64,000 nucleotides of DNA. Source: a virus (Duplodnaviria > Caudoviricetes). The notes beneath the pieces are model-generated. The model saw nothing but the letters and a program-made list of their open reading frames with translations, was not told the origin of the DNA and made no database searches. This document shows positions 1-26,352 of the stretch, piece after piece. Both the position numbers and the translations under genes were made by a program. The stretch lies in IMG/VR virus record IMGVR_UViG_3300043786_001086; one strand, 5' to 3'. How positions within the stretch are numbered: the stretch's first letter is position 1; every line of letters begins with the position of its first letter.

Positions 1-513
1 ACTTTGAGTTGGTGTTGGTGTGTTTGTTGGGGTTGGGGTTGGTGTCATTGACAAAATAAAATCTCTAGTCGGACTTGGTGTTGGTGTTGGAAATGGGGTA
101 ACACAACAATTGTATTGTAAAATATAACAATCGTTATATGTTAAATCATTTGCAATATAACTTTCAACAATATTTATATAAAGTGGTTCTCTTATTGGTA
201 AGATTAAAGTTCCTGTTTCATTTATAAATAAAAATTGACCCTCATACCTTCCAACTTTACTAGTGTCTTGTTGAGTGAATCTATAATACACATAATACTC
301 TGGTGTTGAGTTAGGGTCCATACCTAATTTTTCCACAAAACTTGCGGTTTTGGTATATACTTTGAATAAACCATTTGTGGTATCAACCATAGAAAAGAAA
401 ATGGAAGACCTTTCTATGAACTCCATCATAGAGTCATAGTTCTGAATACCATCTTTCACAACTTGTAATTTAAGAAGAGGTAAGGTAGAATTTTGGGCTA
501 TTGTAAATTCCAT
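1..513 (-). CDS. Putative virion structural protein, BppU-N-like domain plus Pro-Thr tail; 3'-truncated by window edge; paralog of 534..1034
   Basis: Not in ORF track. ATG at 513 reads MEFTIAQNSTLPLLKLQVVKDG...IFFSMVDT...EYYVYYRFT..DTSKVGRYEGQF...CCVTPFPTPTPSPT...TPTPTPT, open to position 1; ATAAATA motif at 527-533. Confidence 0.8.
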   Translation of the reverse strand, partial: MEFTIAQNSTLPLLKLQVVKDGIQNYDSMMEFIERSSIFFSMVDTTNGLFKVYTKTASFVEKLGMDPNSTPEYYVYYRFTQQDTSKVGRYEGQFLFINETGTLILPIREPLYINIVESYIANDLTYNDCYILQYNCCVTPFPTPTPSPTRDFILSMTPTPTPTNTPTPTQS

Positions 514-533
514 TTAATCTTTTACTATAAATA

Positions 534-1034
534 CTAGATAGTAGTGGTTGTTGTGGTGGTGTATATTATTGTTGTAGTTGTTGTGGTAACTGGAAACGGA
601 GGAAAGGGTAACGAACCCCCAATACAACAAGGAAAGTCCACAACATAACAAGATTGAAATTCCACATCATCTATTATAAAACTTTCCGTAACGTTTATAA
701 ATATATCTTGATTCAAAGGTAACGTCATTATACCTGTATCGTTTCTGAATAAAAATTGACCTTTATATCTTGCAACTTTTTTTGTGTCAAAAGGCGTGAA
801 TTGATAATAAACATAATATTCCGTTTCGGCACTTGTGCTAAGTTGCTCTTTTTTCATTAAACCTGCAGGTCTGCTTGAAATTCTTGGGATTCCAGTTTGA
901 GTATCAACCATCGAAAAGAATATGTCGGTTTCATTTAGATACCTCATCGTTCTATCGTAATCACTTCTACCGTCTTTTATGACGTTAATTTTTAATACGG
1001 GTAATGTTGAATTTTTCTTTATGAACCACTCCAT
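534..1034 (-). CDS. Putative virion structural protein, BppU-N-like domain with poly-Thr tail
   Basis: NSTLPVLK..KDG, IFFSMVDT, YYVYYQFT..DT..ARYKGQF pattern resembles baseplate upper protein N-terminal domains; ends TTTTTTIIYTTTTTTTI. Family call is moderate. Confidence 0.6.
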   Translation of the reverse strand: MEWFIKKNSTLPVLKINVIKDGRSDYDRTMRYLNETDIFFSMVDTQTGIPRISSRPAGLMKKEQLSTSAETEYYVYYQFTPFDTKKVARYKGQFLFRNDTGIMTLPLNQDIFINVTESFIIDDVEFQSCYVVDFPCCIGGSLPFPPFPVTTTTTTIIYTTTTTTTI

Positions 1035-1100
1035 TAAATCTTTTACATATAAATACTTTTATTTAAATTATTCATATAATAAAAGTGATAAAATACTAAA

Positions 1101-2774
1101 TTAACATTCTTTCCTTAATTCTTTGGGGTAATGATCGAACCTATCATGTTCAATTGGAGTTAGTAATAATAATCCTCCCCTTAGTTGATTTATCTTTGTT
1201 AGTTGGTAATGATGACTCATCCATGTATTTTCAAAAGGGTAACTCCACTTTGTATCCAAAAACATTTTTTTATTACCTTCTTGACTTATAATGTGAGTCC
1301 AATTACAGTAATAAATTTCCCCATCAACATATGGCAATCCTAAATGAGATTTAATATTATTAAATTTTGTTTTTGGAGCCTCTGGATCTAAACCACTAAC
1401 AGGTAAATTTGGTTTTTCGGGAAAAAACTCTACTCTTTTTTCTTGTGGTAAATTATACCAAGGCCAACAAGTCCCATTGTCACCATAAAATTCACTATAA
1501 TTTATTTTAAGAAATTCGAAATTCTCCTTATTCATTATTTCAACACATTTATCAAATAAATTTGGTGTATATCTATTAAACCCATTTCTACAAGTTTCGT
1601 ATGGTTTGTTTTGAAAAAACATATCGTCCTCTGACCACCACATATATTGTAAATCGGTATTTGCAAAATGTTCAGCGACGAATTGTCTTCCACCACAAAT
1701 TCCTATATTGTCTTTTTTAATGTGCTCAAATCCATATTGCTCACACAATCTTTCATATTCGGGAGTTGTCGTCAGATCCGTTGAATTATTCAGTAGAAAT
1801 TTTTTAGTTTTATAAATGAAGTTTATGTCATATCCCAACATAGATTTTATTAGAGTTTCAAATTGTTTTGGACTATTGAACGTTATAACATATAATCCAA
1901 CATCCCCATTTTTATTAACGACAATAGGTTCATTTTTTCTAAAACTTTTAATAATGACAGAATCATTTTTTACATCCTCAAAAAATTTGTAAAGTAGTCC
2001 ATTCGATTCTATTTCTACATAATCAATGTTAGTTGGGTTGGTATATGTCATAATAGAAAATAAACTTTCTTCCGTTCCCATTAAACCGTTATTTAATGTG
2101 GTTCTCATTAGATCGTAATACAAAGTATTCATTTCTCTAATCATCATTTTAGAACCACCAAAAAAACCACCCCTACATACTTTATTTACTCTTTGACCAA
2201 CAATCTCGGTCATCGAATCAATATCAAAACCATGAATTTCTCTGTCGGCATCATATGGGAATGCGATGAAAGTAAAACGATTAAATAAATTTTCTATTTT
2301 ATCTAAAACTTTATCGTGAGTGAAATAACCCATATTTACGGTGTTTGCAATTCCAGCGTCTAACCAAAATAATTTTTGAGAATTAAATTTGTCTAATATA
2401 ACCGCATCATGTAATAAAAACATTTTTGACATTACAAGAGGATTATACATTTCGAGTTTTGCCTGTGTTGAATCTTTTAACCAACCGGATAAATTATACC
2501 AATTTGGGTTTGTTCTAATTTCTTGGATCTTATCGTAAAATTCACCCTTAAACCATGATAGATTTCTAACGATAAATTGTGTGTTTTCAGGACTTCGTTT
2601 GGAAAAAACAAATTTTTCTAATTCACCATCACCGAATATAATCATATTACAATCTACCTCTAGTAGTTGTGAAAATTTTTCTAAATAATGATCATAAGAT
2701 CTTGCCCAACCTTCTGTAAGTTCGTTTCGTTTTATATCCCATAAACCAGTAACTATTGTCAATTTTGAATTCAA
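1101..2774 (-). CDS. HtrL/YibB(WlaTC)-like domain fused to a C-terminal GT-A-like glycosyltransferase domain
   Basis: N-terminus LTIVTGLWDI...WLDAG...GGFFGG...GTEESL typical of HtrL/YibB family; C-terminal half VGLYVITFNSP...WWSEDDMFF is GT-A-like. TTG start. Confidence 0.6.
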   Translation of the reverse strand: MNSKLTIVTGLWDIKRNELTEGWARSYDHYLEKFSQLLEVDCNMIIFGDGELEKFVFSKRSPENTQFIVRNLSWFKGEFYDKIQEIRTNPNWYNLSGWLKDSTQAKLEMYNPLVMSKMFLLHDAVILDKFNSQKLFWLDAGIANTVNMGYFTHDKVLDKIENLFNRFTFIAFPYDADREIHGFDIDSMTEIVGQRVNKVCRGGFFGGSKMMIREMNTLYYDLMRTTLNNGLMGTEESLFSIMTYTNPTNIDYVEIESNGLLYKFFEDVKNDSVIIKSFRKNEPIVVNKNGDVGLYVITFNSPKQFETLIKSMLGYDINFIYKTKKFLLNNSTDLTTTPEYERLCEQYGFEHIKKDNIGICGGRQFVAEHFANTDLQYMWWSEDDMFFQNKPYETCRNGFNRYTPNLFDKCVEIMNKENFEFLKINYSEFYGDNGTCWPWYNLPQEKRVEFFPEKPNLPVSGLDPEAPKTKFNNIKSHLGLPYVDGEIYYCNWTHIISQEGNKKMFLDTKWSYPFENTWMSHHYQLTKINQLRGGLLLLTPIEHDRFDHYPKELRKEC

Positions 2775-2801
2775 ACCTCGTAATTTTTTTAAAAAATTTT
2801 A

Positions 2802-4376
2802 TTAATGTTTGGTGAAGTAATAATCATTTAGTATTAAACAATCCATCTGTGTCTTATCATAAACTTGAATTGCATCGGTATATCTTGAAAGTATTGGTTT
2901 TCCATTCACATTGAATGATGTGTTTAGTAAAACTCCAATACCAGATTTTTTTTCAAATTCGGTGAGTAAATTATATAACCAAGGATTTTGTTTTTCTGTA
3001 ACGGTCTGAACTCTTGCGGTTCCATCAACATGGGTAATAGAAACCAATTTTTCTCTCCACTCTTCTTTTACAGTAGGACAAAATCCCATCCATCTACTTT
3101 CACCACTAAAATTAAAATATTTAGAAACATCTTCTAATTTACAGACAGGAGCAAATGGTCTATACCATTCTCTGTTTTTTACTTTTTGATTGAGTATGTC
3201 TTTCATATTATCATATGCCGGATTACAAATAATACTTCGATTACCAAGAGCACGAGGACCATGTTCGGAATTTCCTCTAACCACTCCAACAATTTTTCCA
3301 TTAGATAAATCATCAATTAGTTTTTCATAATTAATTGGTTTGGCGTGCCGTTCCTCAACGTGAGACATTAGTGTGTGTTTATCTAATATATCAATACCAG
3401 AATACGTAATATCAATCGCCTTTTCGGGTTTAATATGATTTAATATCATACCTGTTGCAATTCCGCAATCATTTGGATTTGGTGGAACAAATACAGGTCT
3501 ATTCAATTCGTCGTGTAATCTTGTGTTCAATAAAATATTAAGACCACAACCCCCAACAAGAATTAAAGGTATATTAGGAAACTTATCTAAAAATGGTTTA
3601 ATCATTTCTATAAAGACTTCTTCAAATGCAACCTGTGAAGTTTTTGCAACGTCCCAACCCAACTGATCTGTCATTCTATTATTTATATCAAATGATAAAT
3701 TTGTTTGACTTCCCAACTCACTCAAATATTGTAAGTAGTTGTTCCCATCAGGTTTTTTTCTATAATACTCTTTAAAATAAGGTAACCAATTTTCATTTAC
3801 ATTACCATAAGAACAAAGACCCATAATTTTTCCTGAATAAACTAAATTACCAATGCTAAGAGCCGGTTCTCTTCTTATGTCTCCTAAGTAATCCCCAAAA
3901 GACATGTATGGAAATCCTAAATCAATATTAAATTTTTCTACGATATTAATTGTCTTTCTATCCTTTGCGTGGTAGATATTAAAAAATCCATCGTTACCAC
4001 CACCATCAAAAGATACAATCAAAGCCTCGTTGTAGTCTGTTTGATAAAAACCACAAGCTGCGTGACTTAAGTGATGGAGACATTCTATATATTCTTTAGC
4101 TGGTATTAATTTTTGATAATGAACTTTTGTATTACCTTCGATAGTATCTGAATTTAAAAAGTAACATTTATCATATTCAAAAATTCCATACTCGTCTTTG
4201 ATATACTCAACAATATGTTTAAGTAAAAAAGGTCTTGTGTAAGATACTAAATACTGCGAATAGCCCGCATTTTTTTGTGAAAGGAATCTCTCAACTTCAA
4301 TAACTACAATAATTTCACCTTGGTTTTCAACAACAACAGAAGCGTTATGTGAACCATAAAAAGATATGTTTGCCAT
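2802..4376 (-). CDS. Carbamoyltransferase, NodU/CmcH family
   Basis: GSHNAS, HHLSHAA, DGGG, GKIMGL, EHGPRALGNRSI, REWYRPFAP, HVDGTARVQTV, LLNTSFN motifs. Confidence 0.95.
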   Translation of the reverse strand: MANISFYGSHNASVVVENQGEIIVVIEVERFLSQKNAGYSQYLVSYTRPFLLKHIVEYIKDEYGIFEYDKCYFLNSDTIEGNTKVHYQKLIPAKEYIECLHHLSHAACGFYQTDYNEALIVSFDGGGNDGFFNIYHAKDRKTINIVEKFNIDLGFPYMSFGDYLGDIRREPALSIGNLVYSGKIMGLCSYGNVNENWLPYFKEYYRKKPDGNNYLQYLSELGSQTNLSFDINNRMTDQLGWDVAKTSQVAFEEVFIEMIKPFLDKFPNIPLILVGGCGLNILLNTRLHDELNRPVFVPPNPNDCGIATGMILNHIKPEKAIDITYSGIDILDKHTLMSHVEERHAKPINYEKLIDDLSNGKIVGVVRGNSEHGPRALGNRSIICNPAYDNMKDILNQKVKNREWYRPFAPVCKLEDVSKYFNFSGESRWMGFCPTVKEEWREKLVSITHVDGTARVQTVTEKQNPWLYNLLTEFEKKSGIGVLLNTSFNVNGKPILSRYTDAIQVYDKTQMDCLILNDYYFTKH

Positions 4377-4379
4377 TTT

Positions 4380-5624
4380 TTATAAATTGCCAGTTATTCT
4401 ATCGCACCAACCTTTAGATTTAGAATAAGGCCAAACAACCCAATATTTTGGTTTTTGAGTTGTATTAAACTCTCTCCATATCTTACAGTATCCATCAGGA
4501 TCTTTTTTACAATTATTTATTTCATTAATATCGGCATCTCGTCTATATATCGTTTCATCTTTGTCGTCGTGAAACGCAACTACCCAAAAATCATAATCTT
4601 CTTCGGGAACATTATTAAAACTCAAATCAATACAATGTTTAAAAATTGTTGAAAATGATTTTTTCCATTCATCTTCATTTTCAAAATTGTAAGTGTTTGG
4701 TGGATATTTTTTATCAATTGTTTCTTGTTGAATACCTCTTGTCTCAAATAAAAGACCTGCGTATTTTTCGTAATCTTTGATTGTTCTTTCAGATCCGAAC
4801 CACTCTAAGTAATCTCCATCAAACTTTTCACCATCAACTCCAAGTAGTTGTCTGTTTTTTTTATGACACGAAATGTTTTTCAAATACCATTCTTTATCAT
4901 CATCCCATTGTTTTGTTCTACCTTTACGAGTGTATTCGTGCCAAATAAGAACTTTGTGTGGATGAAATAAGTCATACCCATGAGTGTAGGCTCGAACAGT
5001 TATAGAAATTTCTTCTCCGTGGAAATAAAATTCAGGATCATGTTGAACTTCCTTTGAAAACTCACCCAATGTAAAACAATAGTGGGCAGAATAAAATCTT
5101 GCAGGAACAGGTTCTTTCATTTCTTGCCAACCAGGAATAGTTTCAGGTAAGAAAAACACGACACCTTCGGGGGTGAATCTGTCAAATGACATTCTCCATG
5201 GTTCTTTAACTCTTCCTTCAGGATCATTTTCAGGATCAAATGATGAAACATAACCTGTAAGTAATGGTTTTTTGTATCCCTTTTTTTGAAGTTGTTTAAT
5301 CATTTTAATCATTTCATCGTCCCAGTTTTTTTCAAAACGCATATGGGAGTCTATTTGTAAAGTATATTCTTCACCACCATATAATTGTTGGACTTGATGT
5401 CTCGCCCAACAAACACCTTTTGAATCTGTATAAGGAATATCTAAAATTCTAAATCTTTTATCTTTTTTGTATTTAGATAAATCGTCAAAACCATCTTCAG
5501 GATGAAATTGCCTTGCAACACCTATAACTATGTTTTTAGGTTTTTTGGCATTTTCTAACAAGTTTTCGATTGTTGGTATAAGTTGGGGGTCTCTATAAGA
5601 TGCGATTTGGACAAATATTTTCAT
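4380..5624 (-). CDS. Polypeptide/hydroxyproline GlcNAc transferase-like glycosyltransferase (Skp1 Gnt1/GT60-like, Pfam GlcNAc)
   Basis: IFVQIASYRDPQL, GVCWAR, YTLQIDSHMRF..NWD, YFHGEE...RAYTHGYD, HEY motifs match the Gnt1/GT60 family. Confidence 0.85.
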   Translation of the reverse strand: MKIFVQIASYRDPQLIPTIENLLENAKKPKNIVIGVARQFHPEDGFDDLSKYKKDKRFRILDIPYTDSKGVCWARHQVQQLYGGEEYTLQIDSHMRFEKNWDDEMIKMIKQLQKKGYKKPLLTGYVSSFDPENDPEGRVKEPWRMSFDRFTPEGVVFFLPETIPGWQEMKEPVPARFYSAHYCFTLGEFSKEVQHDPEFYFHGEEISITVRAYTHGYDLFHPHKVLIWHEYTRKGRTKQWDDDKEWYLKNISCHKKNRQLLGVDGEKFDGDYLEWFGSERTIKDYEKYAGLLFETRGIQQETIDKKYPPNTYNFENEDEWKKSFSTIFKHCIDLSFNNVPEEDYDFWVVAFHDDKDETIYRRDADINEINNCKKDPDGYCKIWREFNTTQKPKYWVVWPYSKSKGWCDRITGNL

Positions 5625-5684
5625 GGATTTTTTTTAAAAAAATATTATAATGTATAGTAAAATAAAGTATTTATAAACTAAGAC

Positions 5685-6029
5685 ATGCCGAAACAAATAA
5701 TAATAACTTCTATATCTGGTAATTCTCCTTTTGATTTTTACGCTTGTGATATAACAAACACATATTGTTATTTGATTGCGTCCTCCGTTGTTGCTCCTCC
5801 GGTCTTGGTGTTGGATATTCCACCACCTTTAGATGTTGCAAGTGTTGTAAATGTTAAGGTTATTGACTCAAGTGGTTGCACTGAGTTTATAAATTATTCT
5901 TGTTCACCAACACCCACTATGACAGTAACACCCACAATGACCCCAACAATAACAGTGACACCTGGACTAAGTCCTACTGTGACACCCAGTGTTACACCAA
6001 CAATAACACCAACACCAACTTTTATATAA
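5685..6029 (+). CDS. Small putative virion protein with Pro-Thr repeat tail
   Basis: About 70-aa Cys-containing beta-type domain followed by SPTPTMTVTPT...PTPTFI; TATTTAT motif 10 nt upstream. Confidence 0.7.
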   Translation: MPKQIIITSISGNSPFDFYACDITNTYCYLIASSVVAPPVLVLDIPPPLDVASVVNVKVIDSSGCTEFINYSCSPTPTMTVTPTMTPTITVTPGLSPTVTPSVTPTITPTPTFI

Positions 6030-6083
6030 CTCAAATTAAGTAATCAAAAATCAATTTATTATTTATTGATTTTATTTAATGAA

Positions 6084-6115
6084 TTGTTAATTTTAATACA
6101 TAGAAAATAGGTTTG
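6084..6115 (+). promoter_or_regulatory. Possible Bacteroidota sigma70-type promoter upstream of the J-domain gene
   Basis: TTG (6084-6086), 21-nt spacer, TAGGTTTG (6108-6115) fits the TTG-N19-21-TAnnTTTG consensus. Confidence 0.4.
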
Positions 6116-6144
6116 AAAATTAAACCTTATCTATTTATCAAAAG

Positions 6145-6705
6145 ATGAAAAATCACAAACTATATGAATATAAAATAAAAATTCTATTGAATGAGTTAGA
6201 AACATTAGAATTGAATGAGATTTACGTTGAAGAGTTCACAAACACCTATAAGACACAATTCATGTCAGAAGTAGTTGGTCTGTCAGATGAATCAATAACC
6301 AATTCAGGGGACACAAAAAATGGAGAAACACAGATAAAAAAAGAAGATATATATGATGTCGATGAAAATGATAAACAAAGAATTAAAGAAATATATCGAA
6401 CAATTGCAAAACAGACTCATCCTGATAAAATAAATGATAATTACTTAAATCAAATTTATATTGAATCACACAAGGCATATGAAAAAAATGACCTATTGAG
6501 TTTATATAAACTTTGTAAAAAGTTAAACATAGAAATTGAATTTGTAGAATCAGATATTACTTTATTACAAAAAATTGTTAATTTAAAAAAACAAAAATCT
6601 ACAGTTTTAGAAACATCTTTTTTATGGTTATGGGTTCATGCAAAAACAAAGGAAGAAAAAGAATCTGTAATCTATCTATATATAAAACAATCAAAAGGAA
6701 TTTAG
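6145..6705 (+). CDS. J-domain (DnaJ-like) co-chaperone
   Basis: IKEIYRTIAKQTHPDK...IYIESHKAYE: helix II, HPD motif, helix III of a J domain. Confidence 0.8.
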   Translation: MKNHKLYEYKIKILLNELETLELNEIYVEEFTNTYKTQFMSEVVGLSDESITNSGDTKNGETQIKKEDIYDVDENDKQRIKEIYRTIAKQTHPDKINDNYLNQIYIESHKAYEKNDLLSLYKLCKKLNIEIEFVESDITLLQKIVNLKKQKSTVLETSFLWLWVHAKTKEEKESVIYLYIKQSKGI

Positions 6706-6706
6706 A

Positions 6707-7855
6707 ATGAAAAGAATTGGGATAACCGTTAAGATAAATAATAGTTTATTTGCAAATGGTGTTAATCAAAACGCATTATACTTAGCAAGAGTTTTGAAAA
6801 AAGGTGGGTATATTGTGGATTTGATTTGTGGAGATCAAAAAACCATAGATGACGTTAGTGAATATGAAAAAGAAATCAACACATTTAGTTTAGAAAAATC
6901 TTATAATATAAGATATAATTTGATAATCCAAGTAGGACTTACCGTTAGTAAAAAAATGTTTTCAAATTGGAAACAAAAAAATAAAGACTTGAAGTTTGTA
7001 ACATATGAATGTGGTAATCATTATTTAATCAACACTGAAAGAATGTTGTTTGATTACAAAAGAGAAAATAACACTTTAAAAGATAGATTTGATTATGACC
7101 AAATACCTCATCAAGTGTGGTCAATTCCTCAAATGGAGAATACTAATTACTTTTTTTATAAATTTTACACAGGACAAGAAAAAGTTACTGTAGTTCCTTT
7201 TATATGGGATCCATTTGTTATAGAACGTTCATTTGAGATTAGAGAAAAATCTACATACACACCAAGACCTATTGAAAAATGTGGAGTTTTAGAACCAAAC
7301 ATGTCGGTCATGAAAAATTCAATATTACCAACAATAATACTAAATAAAAGTCAAAAAACTAATCCATTAAAACACATTTACGTATTTGGAACTGAATTAA
7401 TAAGAGACTCAAAACCATATGTTAATTTTATTCAATCAACAGACATTTATAAAAATAAAATATTGACCGTTGAATCTAGATTCCAAACAGATAAAGTTTT
7501 AACCGAACACGTTGATTTTGTTTTAAGTTGGCAATGGGAAAATAATTTAAACTATTTATGGTTCGATGTTGCATGGATGGGATATCCAATCATCCATAAT
7601 GGATCTATGTGTCAAGATGTTGGATACTATTACGAAGGATTTGACGGTGATGATGCGGTTTTGAAAATTGATGAGGTAATTAAAACTCATAACGATAATT
7701 ATGGAAATTACTTAACTAAAAATCGAGAGATAATCAAAAGGTATACATCTCAAAATGATAATTTAGTTTTGCAATATAAGTATTTGGTTGATAATGTATT
7801 GAACAATAAATTTGAAAGAAAACAATACGATTGGAAAGAAAATAAAATATATTAA
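6707..7855 (+). CDS. DUF2827-like GT-B glycosyltransferase-like protein
   Basis: IGIT...FANGVNQN, CGNHY, VWSIPQ, VPFIWDP, EPNMSVMK, NNLNYLWFD, GYPIIHN, GYYYEGFD pattern. Confidence 0.65.
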   Translation: MKRIGITVKINNSLFANGVNQNALYLARVLKKGGYIVDLICGDQKTIDDVSEYEKEINTFSLEKSYNIRYNLIIQVGLTVSKKMFSNWKQKNKDLKFVTYECGNHYLINTERMLFDYKRENNTLKDRFDYDQIPHQVWSIPQMENTNYFFYKFYTGQEKVTVVPFIWDPFVIERSFEIREKSTYTPRPIEKCGVLEPNMSVMKNSILPTIILNKSQKTNPLKHIYVFGTELIRDSKPYVNFIQSTDIYKNKILTVESRFQTDKVLTEHVDFVLSWQWENNLNYLWFDVAWMGYPIIHNGSMCQDVGYYYEGFDGDDAVLKIDEVIKTHNDNYGNYLTKNREIIKRYTSQNDNLVLQYKYLVDNVLNNKFERKQYDWKENKIY

Positions 7856-7865
7856 AACTTATAAA

Positions 7866-9068
7866 ATGAAAAATTTAAAAATTGGTATTACAATATCTTT
7901 GATGAATTATTCCGAGTCTATTTGGACTAATGGTTTAAAACAAAATATATTGATGTTTATTCACCTTTTAAAACAATCAAAAAATAATTATGAGGTTTTT
8001 CTTTTAAATACAAATAAGGTTGAGGGTGATGATGCCAAAAAAGGAAACTATCTTAAAGATATTGATATATTTTATTTTGATGACAAATATATGGAAATGG
8101 ATTTAATCTTTCCGATGGGATCTCAAATCCATGAAGAAAAAGTTTTGAAATTTAAAGAATCGGGAAATAAAAAATATGTCGCATATAAATGTGGAAACAA
8201 TTATGTATTACATATGGAAAAAGTTTTGTTTGATGAAAACAAAAAAAAATATATGGAAATCGAAACAACTTTTGATGAAGTATGGTATATACCACAACAA
8301 CATGAAACAAATTATGGATATTATAATACGTTATATCGAACAAATGCAATTATGGTTCCATTCATTTGGCATCATAAATTTTTGTTAGAAAGTGTTAAAG
8401 AAATCGAACAGGGGTTTATCGATGGTAAATATAAAAAGGGTTATAAATACCAACCTTTTAAAGAAAAGAAAACTATTGGTGTGATGGAGCCAAATATTAA
8501 TATTGTTAAATACGCACTTATTCCAACTATGATAACAGAAGAATGTTACAGAGGTGAAATTGGTAAAAAAAATATCAATTCTTTAATGATTACAAATGCA
8601 CAAAATTTGAAAACAAATCATGAGTTTATGGGGTTGATAAAAACTTTCGATTTATATAAAGATGGTAAAGTTACCGGTGAAGGTAGATATCAAACGGCCT
8701 TTGTTTTGAGTCAGTATGTTGATATTTTAGTTTGTCATCAAGTTTTAAATCCTTTGAATTATTTATATTTGGACGCAGCGTTTCTTGGTTATCCTGTTTT
8801 ACATAACGCACCTTTGTGTAAAGATCTTGGTTATTACTACGAAGGATCTGATACGGTTGAGGGGTCAAAACAATTAAATTATATTTTAACCGAACACGAT
8901 AATAATTTAACAGAATATCATGAAAGAAATGATAAGGTCCTTCAAAGATATCACGCTGATAATGAAATGTTGGTTGAAACTTATGATAAAATGATATATA
9001 ACTTGTTTAATGGGGGTAATAAACATTTGATTTATAATCCAAAAACAAATTTATACGATAATCTATAA
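7866..9068 (+). CDS. DUF2827-like GT-B glycosyltransferase-like protein (tandem paralog)
   Basis: Start moved to ATG 7866 (MKNLKIGIT); SIWTNGLKQN, CGNNY, VWYIPQ, VPFIWH, EPNINIVK, LNYLYLD, GYPVLHN, GYYYEG. Confidence 0.65.
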   Translation: MKNLKIGITISLMNYSESIWTNGLKQNILMFIHLLKQSKNNYEVFLLNTNKVEGDDAKKGNYLKDIDIFYFDDKYMEMDLIFPMGSQIHEEKVLKFKESGNKKYVAYKCGNNYVLHMEKVLFDENKKKYMEIETTFDEVWYIPQQHETNYGYYNTLYRTNAIMVPFIWHHKFLLESVKEIEQGFIDGKYKKGYKYQPFKEKKTIGVMEPNINIVKYALIPTMITEECYRGEIGKKNINSLMITNAQNLKTNHEFMGLIKTFDLYKDGKVTGEGRYQTAFVLSQYVDILVCHQVLNPLNYLYLDAAFLGYPVLHNAPLCKDLGYYYEGSDTVEGSKQLNYILTEHDNNLTEYHERNDKVLQRYHADNEMLVETYDKMIYNLFNGGNKHLIYNPKTNLYDNL

Positions 9069-9104
9069 CAAAAAAAGAGTCCCTAAGGACTCTTTTTTTT
9101 TTGT
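9069..9104. terminator. Bidirectional intrinsic terminator
   Basis: AAAAAAAGAGTCC-CTAA-GGACTCTTTTTTT between convergent genes. Confidence 0.9.
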
Positions 9105-9119
9105 TATTATAACAATAAC

Positions 9120-10226
9120 TTAAGCAACTATGTTACCTGCAAATTGAACAGTAGAACCAAGTTTTGGTGCTGTAACAAAGTTGATTTGCGCAATGTTACC
9201 ACCTAATGCTGTAACAACTGTATAGTCGTCACCAGCACTTTGTAATAGACCATTTAAATATACAAATTCAGTATTTGCAACTAACTCATCGTCCAACGGG
9301 AAATCTTTATTTGTTCCGTTAACAACTCCTGTAGTTCCTACTTTACCAAAGTCCGAAGCATTGATGGCCGAAATTGCCGTTGACAAAGACTCATCGGCAG
9401 ATTGTCTTGTCGAAGCTTCAGTGGAAATCGCACTTGATAATGAATTATCGGCAGATAACCTTGTTGATGCTTCAGTTGAGATTTCAGTAGATAATGCAGT
9501 CGATAAAGAAGCGTCAGCAGAAGTTCTTGTAGAAGCTTCAGTAGAAATTGCAGTTGATAAAGACGCATCACCTGATACTCTTGAGGATGCTTCAGTAGAA
9601 ATTTCTGTAGATAAAGCAGTCGATAAAGAAGCGTCAGCAGAAGTTCTTGTAGAAGCTTCAGTAGAAATTGCAGTTGACAATGAAGTATCTGCAGAACCTC
9701 TTGTTACTTCTTCATTAGAAATTCTAGTTTCTAAAGATGCATCAGCAGAAGCGTTGTTAGAAATTGCAGTTGACAACGATGCGTCAGCAGAAGTTCTTGT
9801 AGAAGCTTCAGTAGAAATTGCAGTTGATAAAGACGCATCACCTGATACTCTTGAGGATGCTTCAGTAGAAATACCAGCATCAACGTAATCCTCCAATGAG
9901 TTATCCGCAGATGTTCTTGTAGAAGCTTCAGTAGACAATGCAGTAGACAATGACGCATCACCTGATACTCTTGAGGATGCTTCAGTAGAAATTTCTGTAG
10001 ATAATGCAGTTGATAATGAATTATCAGCAGACAATCTTGTTGACTCTTCTGTAGTTAAGTCAGTTTCTAATACCGTTAGAGCGCCATCAACCGCAGTAAC
10101 TGTAGGAGGAAACGCAGGATTTGAAAACGCGATATTTCCTGCGGTAATTCCCGATGGGTTTGTAATTGTTGGACTTGTAAGTAACAAGTCCGACTGTAAG
10201 TCTAAGACTATTTTTGTTGTAGCCAT
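9120..10226 (-). CDS. Putative trimeric coiled-coil fibre protein with SLST / ExxxRxxADxxL repeats and C-terminal beta domain
   Basis: Repeats such as STEASTRTSADASLSTA; C-terminal GVVNGTN..F.L......FVYLNGLLQ...DY...F..AP..GS module. Confidence 0.7.
   Translation of the reverse strand: MATTKIVLDLQSDLLLTSPTITNPSGITAGNIAFSNPAFPPTVTAVDGALTVLETDLTTEESTRLSADNSLSTALSTEISTEASSRVSGDASLSTALSTEASTRTSADNSLEDYVDAGISTEASSRVSGDASLSTAISTEASTRTSADASLSTAISNNASADASLETRISNEEVTRGSADTSLSTAISTEASTRTSADASLSTALSTEISTEASSRVSGDASLSTAISTEASTRTSADASLSTALSTEISTEASTRLSADNSLSSAISTEASTRQSADESLSTAISAINASDFGKVGTTGVVNGTNKDFPLDDELVANTEFVYLNGLLQSAGDDYTVVTALGGNIAQINFVTAPKLGSTVQFAGNIVA
9370..10055 (-). repeat. Imperfect coding tandem repeats, near-identical 45-100 nt blocks
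   Basis: Blocks such as gcgtcagcagaagttcttgtagaagcttcagtagaaattgcagttga and gacgcatcacctgatactcttgaggatgcttcagtagaaat recur several times. Confidence 0.9.
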
Positions 10227-10460
10227 TTGTAAAAATTAATTTTGACTATTAAATGATTTTTCTCACCATAAAAATCCAACTCAGATTTTACGTTTTTCTG
10301 ACACATACAAATTTTTACCCAAACAATATAATTTAAATTGTTTGCTTAATTTTTTTATTAATTTAAATAATTGGGATAAATAAAGATATTAATAATCGTC
10401 TTAAAAAAGACTTTGATTTACATATAAATATTTCATATTATCAAAAAAGAAAAAAAATTA

Positions 10461-10694
10461 TTATAAATTATATAATAAATTTTTTAAATTCTTAATTGAA
10501 TTTGTATATAAAAGCGGTTCACAAGAACCACCTTCATTTAAATAATCATTAACTTCTTTTTGAATCTCTTCCGTTTTGTCAAAAACAAAAATAGCCTTGT
10601 TTCTTTGTTTTTCAACAACCATTTTAAACCCCTTTAATTTTAAATATGCCCCTAAATAAAGATCACTTGTTGTATATCTTGTTTCTTGTTCCAT
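10461..10694 (-). CDS. Small DUF5659-like protein
   Basis: TSDLYLGAYLKLKGF...AIFVF pattern; own upstream ATAAATA motif at 10714-10720. Confidence 0.55.
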   Translation of the reverse strand: MEQETRYTTSDLYLGAYLKLKGFKMVVEKQRNKAIFVFDKTEEIQKEVNDYLNEGGSCEPLLYTNSIKNLKNLLYNL

Positions 10695-10762
10695 TACTGT
10701 TTTTTTTCTTTTTATAAATATGTCTATTTTTTTTGTTTTCTAAAGTTTATTACATAAATTTT

Positions 10763-11488
10763 TTAATTATATCTATATGAACATAATAAAATACTTCCTG
10801 TTGGAGGAGGAGTGTTAAATGTTATAATTTTTCCTGTTATTCTGTAATCAAACATATCACCTTCATCTTGTAATAAACCATTCAAATACAAGTGATCACT
10901 ACCTTCCACAGGAGTTAAGGATAATTCAAATACAGTATTGATTCCGTTAACAACACCCATCGGAACTTCATTATCGATAAAGTTAATTTCAGAGTAAGTT
11001 CTATATGATGCCAATAATCTACTGTTCGCAAATGGCGCAACATTAAACTCTATAGTTCTTCCATAAATTAAATAATCAGCATTTATACCCTCTTTTTGTA
11101 AAAGACCGTTATAATAAATGCTTTCAGAATTAAATTCGGGTGTATATCTTAATGTAAAAATCCTATTGACACCATCAACAGGATATAATACTTCTTTATC
11201 AACAAAATTTGGGTCACCACATTGAGCCGTACAATCAGACTTTAAAACTAAATCAGAATCGGTGATTCCGGTATAATACCAATACTCAACAACACCTTCG
11301 GTTGAACTAATGTATCGTCCTCCTGAAAATACAGTATCACCTGATAAAATACCGACAGTAAGACCTACAACACGAAAAGAAAGATTAATTACCGAGTTGG
11401 CTTCAGTGGTCGAGGTATAGGGTCCATATCTATTATCTAAGATCTTGGGGGCTAGTGGATTTAAATTATCATTAATTTGAATTGCCAT
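10763..11488 (-). CDS. Putative virion fibre/decoration protein with two copies of a small beta module
   Basis: N-terminal LDNRYGPY...R.VGLTVGI...EYWY domain seen in Bacteroidota phage fibres, then two V.G.N..F.L...YxNGLLQ..G..DY.I.G..I.FN..P repeats. Confidence 0.6.
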   Translation of the reverse strand: MAIQINDNLNPLAPKILDNRYGPYTSTTEANSVINLSFRVVGLTVGILSGDTVFSGGRYISSTEGVVEYWYYTGITDSDLVLKSDCTAQCGDPNFVDKEVLYPVDGVNRIFTLRYTPEFNSESIYYNGLLQKEGINADYLIYGRTIEFNVAPFANSRLLASYRTYSEINFIDNEVPMGVVNGINTVFELSLTPVEGSDHLYLNGLLQDEGDMFDYRITGKIITFNTPPPTGSILLCSYRYN

Positions 11489-11491
11489 GTC

Positions 11492-12988
11492 TTAGAATAA
11501 TCCGTTTCCTAGTGTTATTGTGTTTAGTGTTGTTGCGTAATTTCCTAAATAAATATAAAAACTAGCATTTGACCAATATCCCGATTCACTACTTACCAAA
11601 CCGATTACACCAGGATCAAATAAACTTGTGGTCGACATTAAACCTTTGTTATCCGCCGCCACATACCATTGTGATTTTGGACCATAGGTTGACAAATGAG
11701 CAAACCACAAAAATTCTGTAGTTGCGTTATATGTTATGTGTAAATTATCTTGGGCGCTTAACAATACTTTATTTGCGGTTCCGTTTGATATTGAATCTAT
11801 TACTGATTGGACCGTTGGTTCTATGTTCATTTTTCCATAGTAATATGGAAATATCCCTGTTATTGTTCTTGAAGACGAATCAAAGGAAGATGAACTTGAC
11901 TGAGGTGCATTTGTAGATCTAACTTGAAATGGTCGTGTATCATCAACTCCTTTATTTGTTTTTTTTACCAAACCACTCGAGTAATTACCCCTACCTTTAT
12001 ATGTTGTTGTTGAACTTGTAATACCTGTTGGTATAACATAACTTTCATTATAGGATACGCTAAAGGTATAATTTGGGTTATTTGGATCATTATATCCATA
12101 TTGACTTGGTAAATTTGTTGTAGTTGCTGACGTTGGTGTTGTTGTTGAAGTTAAAGAAGTCGCGTTGTTTCTTATAATTTCTAAAAATGTAAAATTTCCT
12201 GCATCATTTTTTGTTGCCGTTACAATCAAATTACTCACATAAGTTGTCCCAACTTCTACAGTTGAGTTTGAGTTGTTGATAGATATTGTTGGAATTGTAT
12301 ATGTTGGTTGTTGAGTTGGAAAAAACATATCGTCAAATATTTCAACTAATGTTTTTCCTGACAAACTTGAAACTGATGTTCCTGCCGGTAAACCCCCTAT
12401 TGTCTGAGCCATTTGTAAAGAAGGGTCTAATAATGTGTTATATTCTGTAAAAAGAATGCCATTATCAACACCCAAACCTGTGTTAGCAGACACGCTTACA
12501 GAACTCGTAAATCCTGAGATCTCAACACTAGATCCATAATTGTTTATTAATTCTAATGTTGATTCCCCTTGATTGTATGTTCCACCTGTAATATAAGTGT
12601 CCGTTAACCCCGTGATTGTAATTAGTTCTCCTGAACTTTTTGATAGAGTTAAAGTTTGAGATGAATAATCTACCGTCCCCCCTGTAATATTATTTATGGT
12701 AATTGCTGATTGAGGAATTGTGTATAAAAAAATCTCTTGCCAATCCGATATTGTAAAGTCCCAAACACAATCTTTTAATTTGAAATATCTACTTCCACCA
12801 TCAACACCTACGATCATACCCGATCTTCGTCGATCAAACGATACGTAATTAAGATCTGTTATGGAACTAACATTTCTTATACCATCGATTCCATATAAAG
12901 GATCGATTACGGCATATGTGTCTCTTGTGTCCATCGGCGAGATGAAACCCATAATTCCAACCCCACCGACACTACTAAAATCGGCCAT
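11492..12988 (-). CDS. Putative virion fibre protein, Ser/Thr-rich
   Basis: RRSGMIVGV N-domain, repeated ITGGT....TL.L motif, TIGGLPAGT..K.L.EIFD.MFFP..P module; high S/T/G content. Confidence 0.6.
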   Translation of the reverse strand: MADFSSVGGVGIMGFISPMDTRDTYAVIDPLYGIDGIRNVSSITDLNYVSFDRRRSGMIVGVDGGSRYFKLKDCVWDFTISDWQEIFLYTIPQSAITINNITGGTVDYSSQTLTLSKSSGELITITGLTDTYITGGTYNQGESTLELINNYGSSVEISGFTSSVSVSANTGLGVDNGILFTEYNTLLDPSLQMAQTIGGLPAGTSVSSLSGKTLVEIFDDMFFPTQQPTYTIPTISINNSNSTVEVGTTYVSNLIVTATKNDAGNFTFLEIIRNNATSLTSTTTPTSATTTNLPSQYGYNDPNNPNYTFSVSYNESYVIPTGITSSTTTYKGRGNYSSGLVKKTNKGVDDTRPFQVRSTNAPQSSSSSFDSSSRTITGIFPYYYGKMNIEPTVQSVIDSISNGTANKVLLSAQDNLHITYNATTEFLWFAHLSTYGPKSQWYVAADNKGLMSTTSLFDPGVIGLVSSESGYWSNASFYIYLGNYATTLNTITLGNGLF

Positions 12989-13014
12989 TTAATTTAGTCT
13001 ATATTCATAAAATA

Positions 13015-14490
13015 TTATACACATAACCACAAGTCAACCTCTGCGTGAGTTGAAACGTAGGTTCTATATACTTTATAAATAGTGGGATTACCAAAAATAT
13101 CAGGGATAATTACGTCGGGTCTAGAAATAATTGGAACAACGAATCCTGCACATCCTTCAGAACTATTTCTAATGATAGATGGTTGATTCATAAATGAAGG
13201 TATCAACAAATATCCATAACCACTTCCACTTACAATTGGAATGTGGATGTCAGTTGAATTAAAGGATTGAACGTTGTCTAATAAATTTTCTTGACCTTCA
13301 GTAAATGACGGAGTTTGAAGTTTTCCAAAATACAATGTTGGTGCAATTGCTGGTGAAGCTGTTGGAGTCGGTGTTAATGTTGGGGTAAATGTTGGTGTTA
13401 CAGATGGTGTGATAGAAGGTGTTGGTGTAATTGTTTGTGTTGGTGTAGTCGTTGGAGTTACGGTAGGTGTTATAGTTGGAGTTACAGTAGGTGTTGGTGT
13501 AGGTGTAAATGTTGGAGTTGCGGTAATTGTAACTGTTGGTGTTGTTGTTGGTGTAATAGTTACTGTTGGAGTTGGTGTTACCCCTATGGTTGGAGTTACG
13601 GTTGGTGTTACGGTTAAAGTCGGAGTTATAGATGGTGATGGTGTATTAGTTGTTGTAATTGTCGGAGTTGGGGTTACAGACGAACCTGGTGTTGGTGTAG
13701 GTGTTGGCGTAGGTGTGGTAGTTGGTGTTGGTGTTACGTCTGTCACAATTATCACATCAAACACGGCGCTTCCTGTATAACCTGATACTTCGGTATTTGT
13801 AACAATAACATCACCATCCAAATCGCTATAATTATGATCTATTATTGTTTCGCTATATCCGGTTGTTTGACCTGATTCTACTATTGTTGATTTTGGAACT
13901 GAAATATGTGTTCCATCTTGCATCATCAATATACATTCATAATCTACACATGTTTCGTAAGGTAAAGTTATGTTGTAATTTACGATTGATTGAACTATGA
14001 TTGAACCAGGAACCACATTTACATGAATTGTAACCACAAGATCTGTTGCGGATGGGCTTGGTGTCGGGAATGGAGTTATACATGGATTCCATGTTGGAGT
14101 CGGTGTTGGTGTTAAAGTTTTGGTCGGTGTTGGCGTCGGAGTCAGAGTCGATGTCGGTGTAGGACTAGGAATTTGACACGGATCAATTGTTGGTGTAGGA
14201 GTTGGTGTTGGCGTAGGTGTCTGTGTCGGAGTTTTTGTCGGAGTTATTGTTGGTGTCGGTGTTGGGGTTGGTCTAACAACATTTAAAAAATAAGGACAAT
14301 TGGACGAAACAGGTTTTATAGTATATGTTCCGTAGATTTCTCTTGCGGGTATTAGTAAATAAGGTTCGAATAAAAAAGGTAAAGTTATTTCACCAAAGTT
14401 TAAAACAACATTATCGTTGTCTGGTTTGAATAGGACTTCAGCCAATTCACCATCATAAAAAACACTATTGATTACTATACTTTGACTCAT
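13015..14490 (-). CDS. Mucin-like Pro-Thr-rich putative virion protein
   Basis: Two long (PT)n tracts separating three small globular domains. Confidence 0.75.
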   Translation of the reverse strand: MSQSIVINSVFYDGELAEVLFKPDNDNVVLNFGEITLPFLFEPYLLIPAREIYGTYTIKPVSSNCPYFLNVVRPTPTPTPTITPTKTPTQTPTPTPTPTPTIDPCQIPSPTPTSTLTPTPTPTKTLTPTPTPTWNPCITPFPTPSPSATDLVVTIHVNVVPGSIIVQSIVNYNITLPYETCVDYECILMMQDGTHISVPKSTIVESGQTTGYSETIIDHNYSDLDGDVIVTNTEVSGYTGSAVFDVIIVTDVTPTPTTTPTPTPTPTPGSSVTPTPTITTTNTPSPSITPTLTVTPTVTPTIGVTPTPTVTITPTTTPTVTITATPTFTPTPTPTVTPTITPTVTPTTTPTQTITPTPSITPSVTPTFTPTLTPTPTASPAIAPTLYFGKLQTPSFTEGQENLLDNVQSFNSTDIHIPIVSGSGYGYLLIPSFMNQPSIIRNSSEGCAGFVVPIISRPDVIIPDIFGNPTIYKVYRTYVSTHAEVDLWLCV

Positions 14491-16674
14491 CTACGTATTA
14501 ATTATTGTGTATGTAAAATCATTAGGAATACATACCGATGTGTCACATACAGGACAATCGGGATCAAACATATTAAAATTTGTTTTCACGATTTGGAAAT
14601 TATGTTTAACTTCGGGAGAAGACAACGGTTCGGTGTAAAATCTAAACTGTGAAATCGCACCATCAAAAGTTCCTGCAAAATTTTGTTCTAACAAAATGTG
14701 AGTTTTTAACTTATTCAACGTGGTCGCACTTAAAACATTCTCAGGAAAACATTCCGGGTCTTGTATGTAGTCCCCAACATTAAGAGAGGTGCAAGCCGAC
14801 AAAGTTAAATTTTCGTGAAGTCCTTGAGTTCCACCACCCCAAGACATGTTAAAAGGAACTCCAACTTGTTTTTCTTTATCGGTATCTAAAGCTCGTGGAA
14901 TGACTTCTTCAAAATTTTCCACAGTGTAAAAAATTCTACCGTTTATATAAATTTTCAAACGACCTAATCTAAATTTAGTTTCGTCCAACCAAGTTTGATT
15001 TAACTGAACAATCTCCACTTGACCAGGAATTTCATAACCATTTGTATATGGTGGTTGTATTAAACTAATTGAATTGTTAGCCAAACTTTGTAATAACTCG
15101 ACTCTCGTTATTTGATCCAAACCACCAAACCATCTTAAATCACAAAAATCTAAAAAAGTGTATCGTTCCCAAACCACATCAATTAAAAACCAATGTTCAA
15201 AGTCTAACCAAACAGGATTTACCTCTAAGCAATATGGGTAAATTGGTGGAGTGCAAATATCAACTATAGTATATCCTGTAACATAAGTTTGACCCGTTAT
15301 ACAAGACCCCGTTGTTTCACATTCACCGGTAATTTTAATTGCTCTAATACCAATACCAGGATTTTTTGGGTCACCACATAATCTAAATGAAATGTTATTT
15401 GACAAGTCATCCATTTTGGGATCTTTTTCACAAGTATCTTCTATTGAGTAAAATGTTGATGATGGTGTAGATGGAGGACATCCACAAGTATCACAACCAC
15501 AACTTGGGCAAGATGTGCAACAAGGTTTGGTTGGACAAGGTATAACATTTGATGGTGCATCGCATGGTGGTGTTGGACTTGGAGTTGGGGTAGGTGTTGG
15601 TGTTGGAATTGTTATTCCCGAACAAACATGAGGAAAACACATCCATCCACATTTCAAACAAGGATCTAAATTACATCCACAACCACAAGTTAATTGTCTT
15701 TCCACACTTCCATTACACAAATTACAACCATAATTGACATGTGGGTCGTATTCCTCACCAATTGGTCTTGGTGGATATACATAGATACATCTACTGTTTT
15801 CTACAGAATAATCACAACAAGCACATGTTTCTTCACAAGTTAAACCTGAAGTTACTCTAACATAATCTTTATCACATTTTGGTGATCCGTCGGCATAATG
15901 GTAAAATTTATTTTCAGCCCGATTACCCATATAAAAAAATGTGTTTTTGTTATTTGGGTAAATTTGATTTAAAGTGGTATAACCTGGTGGAGGAACAAAT
16001 TCGTCAGAAAATCTTGGTTTTAAAATCATTTCTACAGTCCACCCCTTATTCATTCTTTCGGGTAAAATGTCATAGTCATAACCAAACAACTTATAAAACC
16101 CTTGATAAAAACCACCATACAATTCAACATATCTACCTATCACAGGAGCAACTTTAGAAATCATTTGATATGTTGTATAATAAGGAACTCCTGAAAACTT
16201 ATGATTTGAAGGGACATTTGTTGTTGTTTGAAAAAACTTCATTCGTCTATCAAAATAAAGTCTTTGGAATTTTAACTGATCGCTAAATAAACCATTTGTA
16301 AAAACTATACTATCTCCTTTAATTTTTGAAACTAAACCATTATCAACACCTGTCAATCCAATATCACAAGAAGTGCTCGAGCTAAAACAACTTAAATTTA
16401 AATTTTCGGGTTGGTAATAAGTTTCTGAAACAATTATGTTATTGGGATTATAAATTCCATATGTTAAATTTAAGTTTTGTGTTGTGAGGGGACTATTTAA
16501 ATTAAGATTAATTGGTAATTTCCTTCCGTCATCCGCCCCAATAATAAAAGGAGAAAAAACAACTTCCTGATTGTAATCAACTTCATCAGACGCCAAAGAC
16601 ATGTCTTGCCCGTCATAAATAACTTGCAACTTTAACTTTGGGTAGTTATATTGATTTATATTTTGATACGACAT
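14491..16674 (-). CDS. Cys-rich putative virion protein with Pro-Thr linker and LamG/ConA-like fold elements
   Basis: GWTVEMIL and C-terminal GTFDGAISQFRFYTEPLS..EV..NF resemble LamG; more than 35 Cys; central PTPTPTPSPTPP. Confidence 0.6.
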   Translation of the reverse strand: MSYQNINQYNYPKLKLQVIYDGQDMSLASDEVDYNQEVVFSPFIIGADDGRKLPINLNLNSPLTTQNLNLTYGIYNPNNIIVSETYYQPENLNLSCFSSSTSCDIGLTGVDNGLVSKIKGDSIVFTNGLFSDQLKFQRLYFDRRMKFFQTTTNVPSNHKFSGVPYYTTYQMISKVAPVIGRYVELYGGFYQGFYKLFGYDYDILPERMNKGWTVEMILKPRFSDEFVPPPGYTTLNQIYPNNKNTFFYMGNRAENKFYHYADGSPKCDKDYVRVTSGLTCEETCACCDYSVENSRCIYVYPPRPIGEEYDPHVNYGCNLCNGSVERQLTCGCGCNLDPCLKCGWMCFPHVCSGITIPTPTPTPTPSPTPPCDAPSNVIPCPTKPCCTSCPSCGCDTCGCPPSTPSSTFYSIEDTCEKDPKMDDLSNNISFRLCGDPKNPGIGIRAIKITGECETTGSCITGQTYVTGYTIVDICTPPIYPYCLEVNPVWLDFEHWFLIDVVWERYTFLDFCDLRWFGGLDQITRVELLQSLANNSISLIQPPYTNGYEIPGQVEIVQLNQTWLDETKFRLGRLKIYINGRIFYTVENFEEVIPRALDTDKEKQVGVPFNMSWGGGTQGLHENLTLSACTSLNVGDYIQDPECFPENVLSATTLNKLKTHILLEQNFAGTFDGAISQFRFYTEPLSSPEVKHNFQIVKTNFNMFDPDCPVCDTSVCIPNDFTYTIINT

Positions 16675-24465: not shown

Positions 24466-24467
24466 AT

Positions 24468-25654: not shown

Positions 25655-25657
25655 CAT

Positions 25658-26314: not shown

Positions 26315-26352
26315 GTTCTTTATTTTTAATAAAGTAAAATTATATTTAAAAT

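Follow-up and report, generated by a model that had tools for sequence, protein, structure and literature searches.

A predicted GT60 polypeptide glycosyltransferase and its candidate Pro-Thr acceptor proteins in a T4-like jumbo phage

The GT60 gene, its partners and the Pro-Thr proteins

We analysed a 64 kb stretch of DNA (hereafter, the window) from the IMG/VR virus record IMGVR_UViG_3300043786_001086, in which a predicted glycosyltransferase of family GT60 is encoded together with several proteins carrying long Pro-Thr (PT) or poly-Thr tracts. The original prediction, made from the letters of the window, was that this phage O-glycosylates its own virion proteins in the manner of mucins. The window has a GC content of about 30% and belongs to a distant T4-like phage. 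Its GT60 protein is found on contigs of up to 298,910 bp, and the complete relatives in IMG/VR, which served for whole-genome comparison, measure 274-322 kb; the window therefore represents a jumbo phage (roughly 300 kb) of a kind common in freshwater metagenomes. A megablast search of the window against GenBank phages returned zero matches.

The open reading frame (ORF) at 4380-5624 on the minus strand matches the Pfam profile PF11397 (GlcNAc, GT60 family; 4520 library representatives at E<=1e-3) with an E-value of 4.4e-71 and 240.6 bits against a cut-off of 21. An alignment of 42 homologues of 36-50% identity shows D92-x-H94 (the DxH motif), E204/E205 and H229 to be invariant. The PDB contains no sequence match to the ORF. 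Its AlphaFold model has a predicted local distance difference test score (pLDDT) of 95.7, and the closest solved structures are almost exclusively GT27: the top 27 Foldseek matches in the PDB are all GT27 polypeptide N-acetylgalactosaminyltransferases (ppGalNAc-transferases) from human, fly and Toxoplasma, with E-values of about 1e-10 and a template modelling (TM) score of about 0.5. A beta-rich C-terminal domain, at about residues 300-414, is conserved among the homologues. The GT60/Gnt1-like identity and the kinship to GT27 that had been proposed for this protein are thus borne out by profile and structure search alike, together with the invariant DxH and third histidine, and we annotate it as a predicted polypeptide alpha-N-acetylhexosaminyl (HexNAc) transferase, the sugar probably being N-acetylglucosamine (GlcNAc). 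The first strand begins at residue 3 and the protein has neither signal peptide nor membrane span, and it is therefore predicted to be cytoplasmic.

All six genes originally credited with long Pro-Thr or Thr tracts are real ORFs with such tracts, and 11492-12988 (minus strand) contains a seventh one, Thr-rich and minor. Matches to a codon pattern encoding PTPTPT number 14 in the window, all on the coding strand of these ORFs, compared with 0 in 100 dinucleotide-preserving shuffles. ORFs antisense to the tracts (e.g. 13409-13780) mirror the PT coding and were rejected as genes. Two of the tract proteins are paralogues encoded on the minus strand. The first (534-1034) consists of a domain of about 130 residues, which resembles the baseplate domain BppU_N, and a bare poly-Thr tail; the second (1-513, 45% identical) has a Pro-Thr tail that is incomplete because the ORF runs past the window edge, and its full-length relatives go on into a Cys-rich distal domain. 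The small protein at 5685-6029, on the plus strand and divergent from GT60, joins an N-terminal domain of about 70 residues to a Pro-Thr tail, and in 8 relatives a PT ORF immediately upstream of GT60 has this N-terminal domain as well. Two further minus-strand genes encode a protein of 491 residues, about half of which is taken up by six blocks of Pro-Thr tracts (13015-14490), and a Cys-rich protein of 727 residues that has a (PT)n linker in its centre and probably a lectin domain of the LamG/ConA-like type (14491-16674). The LamG call is a lead to Laminin_G_3 viral clusters in the cluster atlas; homologues of this protein lie directly upstream of GT60 in 4 relatives, and it may be an appendage protein as well as an acceptor. 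We propose these five proteins as candidate acceptors of the enzyme. The sixth, of 306 residues with a Pro-Thr tract of 120 (52301-53221, minus strand), is a possible acceptor encoded between the large terminase and portal genes. Outside the PT tracts 5685-6029 and 13015-14490 have nothing in common, and hhalign aligned the N-terminus of 14491-16674 with the BppU_N-like sequences over a 14-residue motif only (probability 31%).

As first read, the GT60 gene heads a same-strand run comprising a carbamoyltransferase gene, an HtrL-like gene and the two Thr-tailed ORFs, with 5685-6029 divergent from it. The carbamoyltransferase (2802-4376, minus strand) contains both domains of NodU/CmcH-type O-carbamoyltransferases (PF02543 and PF16861; Carbam_trans_C E 2.7e-63, Carbam_trans_N E 6.3e-21). 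Its best NCBIfam model is NodU (E 5e-52), at 177 bits under an equivalog cut-off of 1000; judged by these profiles, it is a member of the family and not NodU itself. We propose that it carbamoylates a sugar. NodU carbamoylates a GlcNAc residue of Nod factors, and a NodU-like partner therefore fits a pathway that starts with GlcNAc. The next gene (1101-2774, minus strand) had been described as a fusion of an HtrL-like protein and a glycosyltransferase. The HtrL/YibB-like part holds (residues 1-250; PF09612, E 4.7e-14), while for the second domain (residues 285-557) the atlas gives a lead to GT2/WlaTC-HtrL clusters, and this half may be GT2-like. The protein is proposed as an extending transferase.

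Association of GT60 genes with Pro-Thr tracts

A tblastn search with the GT60 protein against 50,697 phage records gave only four matches, all in Xanthomonas or Stenotrophomonas phages, and no close mycobacteriophage homologue. In three of these phages, XacN1, Xoo-sp13 and RAS14, the GT60, carbamoyltransferase and HtrL-fusion genes stand in the same order at 41-47% identity: the carbamoyltransferase following GT60 is 45-47% identical in the three genomes, and for the HtrL fusion the full-length identity to its XacN1 and RAS14 counterparts is 41%. For Stenotrophomonas phage CM1 the comparison covered the GT60 homologue.

Using two alignment-based scans of IMG/VR, we collected 160 GT60 loci, which reduce to 110 non-redundant ones at 90% GT60 identity. 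A PT ORF ends at most 1 kb upstream of GT60 on the same strand in 51 of the 110 loci; the other 1 kb bins average 4.7, and none exceeds 14. After heavy masking, BLAST separates the 69 adjacent PT ORFs into at least 16 families, and their distal domains vary (LamG plus Fib_succ_major, RCC1 propeller, InlB B-repeat). With so many unrelated families and such different distal domains, what is conserved beside GT60 is the tract, and not one gene family.

The same link is seen at the level of whole genomes. Among GT60-positive genomes, matches to PTPTPT number 31 in XacN1, 23 in Xoo-sp13 and 11 in RAS14, and for a longer pattern the five complete relatives of the window have 5-39. Eleven GT60-negative T4-like or jumbo phages (LR756508, LR756511, LR756501, Mel-JY01, immuto, EJP2, Phosso, S-CRM01, RM378, Atu_ph07 and SCTP-2), amounting to 4.2 Mb, have 2 matches altogether; the absence of GT60 from them was checked by tblastn and by Pfam profile, with XacN1 as positive control. 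Reversed-pattern controls gave 0-2 matches. PT tracts were scored as present in 12 of 14 GT60-positive genomes or contigs and in 0 of 11 GT60-negative phages (Fisher p 2e-5 by genome, 0.002 by clade), which contradicts the notion that PT-rich proteins are as common in relatives that lack the enzyme.

Several observations weigh against reading this as a general coupling of enzyme and tract. The independent lineages are few, and shared ancestry inflates the counts. Around eight diverse metagenomic GT60 genes, stretches of up to 10 kb contain no PT tract, and clades 33-35% identical to the GT60 of the window have no adjacent one; of five contigs with a GT60 of 32-35% identity, three have PT tracts elsewhere and two have none. 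One of these two is a complete genome of 159 kb; this genome and an 88% complete contig have zero PTPTPT matches, and GT60 and a PT tract share one polypeptide in only 1 of 150 family representatives. The correlation between GT60 and PT content that the original prediction expected across related phages thus appears in the clade of the window, its sister clade and the XacN1 clade, and does not extend to all distant GT60 clades. In those three clades the coupling seen by genome comparison is strong; it is not a family-wide rule.

These exceptions bear on the possibility that the PT tracts are plain unglycosylated spacers, and that the targets of GT60 and the neighbouring enzymes are others, such as envelope glycans or proteins of the host, or free oligosaccharide or polysaccharide. 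PT linkers act as spacers in many proteins that have no dedicated enzyme, and HtrL/YibB is named after a gene of the Escherichia coli lipopolysaccharide core cluster. GT60 genes without nearby PT tracts occur in several clades, including pure glycan-synthesis clusters (L103, L105, L106), and the complete genome devoid of PTPTPT points the same way. Against this stand the sharp same-strand adjacency peak with PT proteins that are unrelated to each other, the near absence of PT tracts from GT60-negative phages and the lack of a membrane anchor in GT60. Moreover, a bare poly-Thr tail that carries no distal domain, as in 534-1034, would make poor sense as a spacer, and the characterised GT60 enzymes that the reviews PMC6939170 and PMC8724618 describe glycosylate polypeptides. 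We consider it unlikely that the tracts are mere spacers.

It is also conceivable that the tracts are glycosylated mainly by another enzyme, for example one of the host, and that GT60 has a narrower target. PT tracts do occur in several clusters across the related genomes, distant from GT60. The genome-level co-occurrence of tracts and enzyme and their direct adjacency in half of the loci argue the other way, as does the annotation of XacN1 with only two glycosyltransferases (PMC5852040), and we assign this explanation a very low probability.

Candidate virion acceptors and glycan-building genes

If GT60 glycosylates the PT proteins, the next matter is whether these are parts of the virion. 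The N-terminal domain common to 534-1034 and 1-513 was modelled from 31 sequences (pLDDT 77). A VIA search of 48,161 solved chains placed four BppU-type baseplate proteins at the top, 6v8i_BN (Z 8.4), 4v96_AA (8.1), 9m8o_P (8.1) and 3uh8_A (7.7), which come from phages 80alpha, TP901-1 (two chains) and NF5; generic Ig folds follow at Z about 7. Foldseek, too, puts the NF5 baseplate first for the N-terminal domain of the 534-1034 type. In the cluster atlas BppU_N is a lead only, with a 13% share, and since Pfam BppU_N (PF10651) does not match the two proteins, the modelled domain is best described as a likeness to BppU_N rather than a member of the family. In nearly all relatives the enzyme genes are followed by a BppU_N-like gene, which in about half of them carries poly-Thr or PT tracts, with distal domains present or absent.

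None of the PT proteins in the window has a signal peptide. Their genes are found among fibre-like genes and between the terminase and the portal gene, and a motif (G/A)TATTTAT(A/T), located 17-29 nt before start codons, precedes four of the six as well as the portal, terminase and other head-region genes, but not the GT60 gene. It stands at -21 in 534-1034, at -20 in 1-513, at -17 in 5685-6029 and at -18 in 14491-16674. This pattern is consistent with late expression of the PT genes and a different mode of expression for the enzymes; the PT genes had been called late, which we infer from the shared motif rather than observe. The motif itself, at positions such as 1055, 5667, 16692 and 52279, is a candidate late promoter, unlike that of T4 (TATAAATA).

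Experimental data exist for XacN1. Schiff reagent stained at least two glycoprotein bands among its virion proteins, and the authors suggested that ORF328 or ORF334 is responsible (Yoshikawa et al. 2018, PMC5852040). We found that ORF334 is the GT60 homologue, and that ORF325, which comes after the baseplate wedge genes, encodes a PT protein of 3313 residues. The GT60 family, the three-gene set and the PT tracts were not recognised in that paper (PMC5852040).

Other findings count against acceptors of the baseplate or fibre type and their modification by this enzyme. The structural match of the N-terminal domain is middling (Z about 8), no Pfam family matches 534-1034 or 1-513 at E<=0.01, and a PHROGs search of the PT proteins returned no useful name and nothing decisive. 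About half of the relatives have the BppU_N-like gene as a bare domain of 125 residues with no Thr tail and retain GT60 nonetheless, and the GT60 gene lacks the TATTTAT motif of the PT genes. The stained bands of XacN1 are left unassigned to proteins (PMC5852040).

Some of this would be expected if GT60 did glycosylate the PT proteins and these were non-virion accessory or released proteins, such as decoys, matrix binders or assembly aids. No PT protein has a firm annotation as a structural protein, the similarity to baseplate domains is of the modest strength just given, and the distal domains seen in relatives (LamG, RCC1, InlB repeat, Fib_succ_major) are general binding modules. Against such a role stand the lack of signal peptides, the four phage baseplate proteins that head the structural matches, the positions of the PT genes and an upstream motif common to PT and head genes. 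The location of ORF325 in XacN1 and the Schiff-positive bands from purified virions (PMC5852040) also speak for the virion, and we regard a non-virion role as quite improbable.

The genes that would build a glycan on such acceptors vary between relatives. In the clade of the window, 61 of 80 loci have an HtrL-like gene on the downstream side of GT60, and only 5 have a carbamoyltransferase gene there. Between GT60 and the HtrL-like gene (loci L010-L190, GT60 at about 10001-11245) there is a variable cassette of 0-8 genes drawn from 52 BLAST families, the commonest being a CmcI-type sugar O-methyltransferase, GT25, a GT10 fucosyltransferase-like protein, a PLOD-type glycosyltransferase and the carbamoyltransferase. 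In the L107 lineage a sulfotransferase replaces the carbamoyltransferase, and the HtrL-like gene is again found downstream of GT60. Judged by gene content, this arrangement resembles an initiating enzyme that is combined with exchangeable enzymes for extension and decoration, and the cassette looks like a hot spot for glycan diversification. A separate arrangement occurs on metagenome contigs of higher GC, L102:1167-4860 and L108:14-3117 (GC 62% and 46%), where PqqD and ScmC genes lie between two GT60 genes; this cluster, reminiscent of those for ribosomally synthesised and post-translationally modified peptides, hints at GT60 glycosylation of small peptides.

A glycan-building island on the plus strand of the window (22954-30283) encodes a GT2 fusion, GT2, GT25, an FkbM methyltransferase, GT11, GT10, two SDR epimerase/dehydratases and a cytidylyltransferase-like protein, which are candidate extension and capping enzymes. 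The original prediction assigned extension and capping to the glycosyltransferases at 20-34 kb. Indirectly in its favour, GT25, GT10 and sugar O-methyltransferase genes occur inside the GT60 operons of relatives, and the GT10 of the island is 38% identical to its cassette counterpart. GT25 and FkbM are weakly related to cassette genes, and most other island genes have no homologue there. We therefore treat glycan extension by this distant island as possible, if rather doubtful. An ORF bearing NUMOD3 (19494-20399, plus strand), with a weak MTES_1575 match (E 0.003), also lies in the glycosyltransferase region. A role of these genes in DNA hypermodification was set aside: the reviewed GT60 members are protein-directed, and GT10 and GT11 are fucosyltransferase families.

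Between GT60 and the fibre-like block, at 6145-9068 on the plus strand, a weak DnaJ-like gene (6145-6705; DnaJ E 4e-4, below the cut-off) is followed by tandem DUF2827 genes (6707-9068; E 3e-71 and 3e-98), a family that only 1 of 80 relatives has in the neighbourhood of GT60. PDB sequence searches with the DUF2827 proteins and the HtrL fusion found no matches. The block itself (9120-12988, minus strand) comprises three fibre-like ORFs: a Ser/Thr/Ala tandem-repeat protein, a protein with weak matches to tail-fibre PHROGs and an ORF of 498 residues with a short Thr-rich tract. The repeats of the first (9120-10226, minus strand, 368 residues) are of the STEASTRTSADASLSTAI type, not Pro-Thr, and this protein may be another substrate of O-glycosylation.

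The remainder of the window holds head and accessory genes. The large terminase gene (Terminase_6N) lies at 53226-55004, and the gene at 49483-52251 (minus strand) encodes a T4-type portal protein (Portal_T4, E 1e-72) with an intein and HNH insert; Intein_splicing matches at E 2.9e-15 and HNH_3 at E 0.0018, sub-threshold with 18.3 bits against a cut-off of 24.8. The prohead protease gene is found at 46589-47311, next to a free-standing gene for a GIY-YIG homing endonuclease with NUMOD3/NUMOD1 (47315-47992, minus strand). The gp23-type capsid protein of 643 residues (42786-44717, minus strand) gives its best Pfam match over residues 393-628 only and may have a long N-terminal extension or insertion. 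The phage also encodes chaperones: DnaK (HSP70, E 2e-260) and ClpB lie at 59671-63742, in addition to the DnaJ-like ORF.

Comparison with known systems and proposed mechanism

GT60 is described as a family of polypeptide alpha-GlcNAc transferases from Dictyostelium, Toxoplasma and T. cruzi, which are related to GT27 and act on the hydroxyproline of Skp1 or on Ser/Thr of mucin-type domains; the reviews PMC6939170 and PMC8724618 describe the family for protists only. The phage protein shares the Pfam family, the DxH motif and the GT27-related GT-A fold with Dictyostelium/Toxoplasma Gnt1, Dictyostelium pp-alpha-GlcNAcT2 and Trypanosoma cruzi pp-alpha-GlcNAcT. Like the cytoplasmic Gnt1 it is predicted to be soluble, and its candidate acceptors are Thr/Pro-rich, mucin-like tracts. 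It differs from the protist enzymes in being encoded by a phage, in its additional conserved C-terminal beta-rich domain and in lacking a prolyl hydroxylase partner. The hydroxylase family PF13640 was not found in the five complete relatives, which makes threonine a likelier acceptor than hydroxyproline, and a hydroxyproline route like that of Skp1 was set aside on this ground. In place of the GT2/GT74 protein PgtA of the Skp1 pathway, its partners are the carbamoyltransferase and the HtrL-like protein.

GT27 enzymes of animals and Toxoplasma (PDB 2ffu, 6h0b, 8ujf) have the same catalytic GT-A fold and DxH motif and act on Thr/Ser/Pro-rich mucin domains, although their identity to the phage protein is only 11-16%. 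They are membrane proteins of the Golgi that use UDP-GalNAc and carry a ricin-type lectin domain, which is reported to be absent from GT60 (PMC8724618); the phage protein has its beta-rich domain at the C-terminus.

Among phages, XacN1 provides the closest parallel. Its ORF334-ORF333-ORF330 encode the same three enzymes in the same order, and its genome has many PT tracts, the giant ORF325 by the baseplate wedge genes included. It represents, however, another, GC-rich lineage of jumbo phages, and its PT gene lies about 9 kb away on the opposite strand rather than adjacent to GT60.

In mycobacteriophages, glycans have been located on capsid and tail tube subunits, at their C-termini, as the work of Freeman et al. 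2023 is cited in PMC12619734. Going by that citation, in Che8, Corndog and Myrna a phage-encoded set of glycosyltransferases is thought to decorate terminal extensions of the phage's own structural proteins. The window presents a similar picture in its gene order and in the adjacency peak of the 110 loci, with glycosyltransferases linked to putative structural genes that have Ser/Thr-rich extensions. The mycobacteriophage glycans are proven; those of the window are predicted. Its candidate acceptors are proteins of baseplate or fibre type with Pro-Thr tracts, not capsid or tail tube subunits, its proposed initiator is a GT60 enzyme, and neither the phage lineage nor the hosts are related to those of the mycobacteriophages. 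Virion glycosylation as such is thus already known.

Taken together, the data make it somewhat probable that GT60 starts O-glycans on threonines of PT or poly-Thr tracts in proteins of baseplate or fibre type, and that the carbamoyltransferase and the HtrL-like protein act next. The analysis itself shows to which family the enzyme belongs, its catalytic motif and fold, the order of the genes, and a link of enzyme and tract by comparison. We propose that, in the cytoplasm of the infected cell and ahead of assembly, the soluble GT60 would transfer an alpha-linked HexNAc, probably GlcNAc from UDP-GlcNAc, onto tract threonines of the phage's own appendage proteins. The NodU-like carbamoyltransferase would then modify this sugar and the two-domain HtrL-like protein would extend it; further extension and capping may come from enzymes encoded in the 20-34 kb island. 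Baseplate or fibre proteins would in this way acquire mucin-like stalks or brushes that are stiff and hydrophilic and resist proteases. We infer the donor sugar, the acceptor residue, the order of steps, the virion location and the benefit.

The mucin-like coat originally envisaged, with GT60 initiating on PT tracts, is therefore favoured by the identity of the enzyme, the comparative link, the Schiff-positive relative XacN1 and the baseplate-type N-terminal domain, with the restriction that the coupling is not family-wide. The further idea that such a coat serves adhesion to SusD-like host receptors found no support in the analysis. A broader proposition is that GT60-initiated mucin-type O-glycosylation of Pro-Thr stalks is widespread in the abundant jumbo phages of freshwater and in cultured ones of Xanthomonas and Stenotrophomonas, and that the swappable GT60-HtrL cassette (methyl-, carbamoyl-, sulfo-, fucosyl- and GT25-type transferases) gives each phage its own glycan 'serotype' at the tail end. 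We put it forward tentatively, as falling a little short of probable.

To our knowledge, only very few phages have proven virion glycosylation. XacN1 and its relatives, which are in culture and possess the same three enzyme genes, allow a direct test of the idea, and Schiff-positive virion bands have been seen in XacN1. If these freshwater phages do start mucin-type glycans on their own appendage proteins, GT60 gains a large branch in viruses of prokaryotes, and Pro-Thr tracts in phage proteins become readable as glycosylation tags. The surfaces of these phages would bear self-made, variable glycan coats, which could affect adsorption, stability, grazing or immune recognition.

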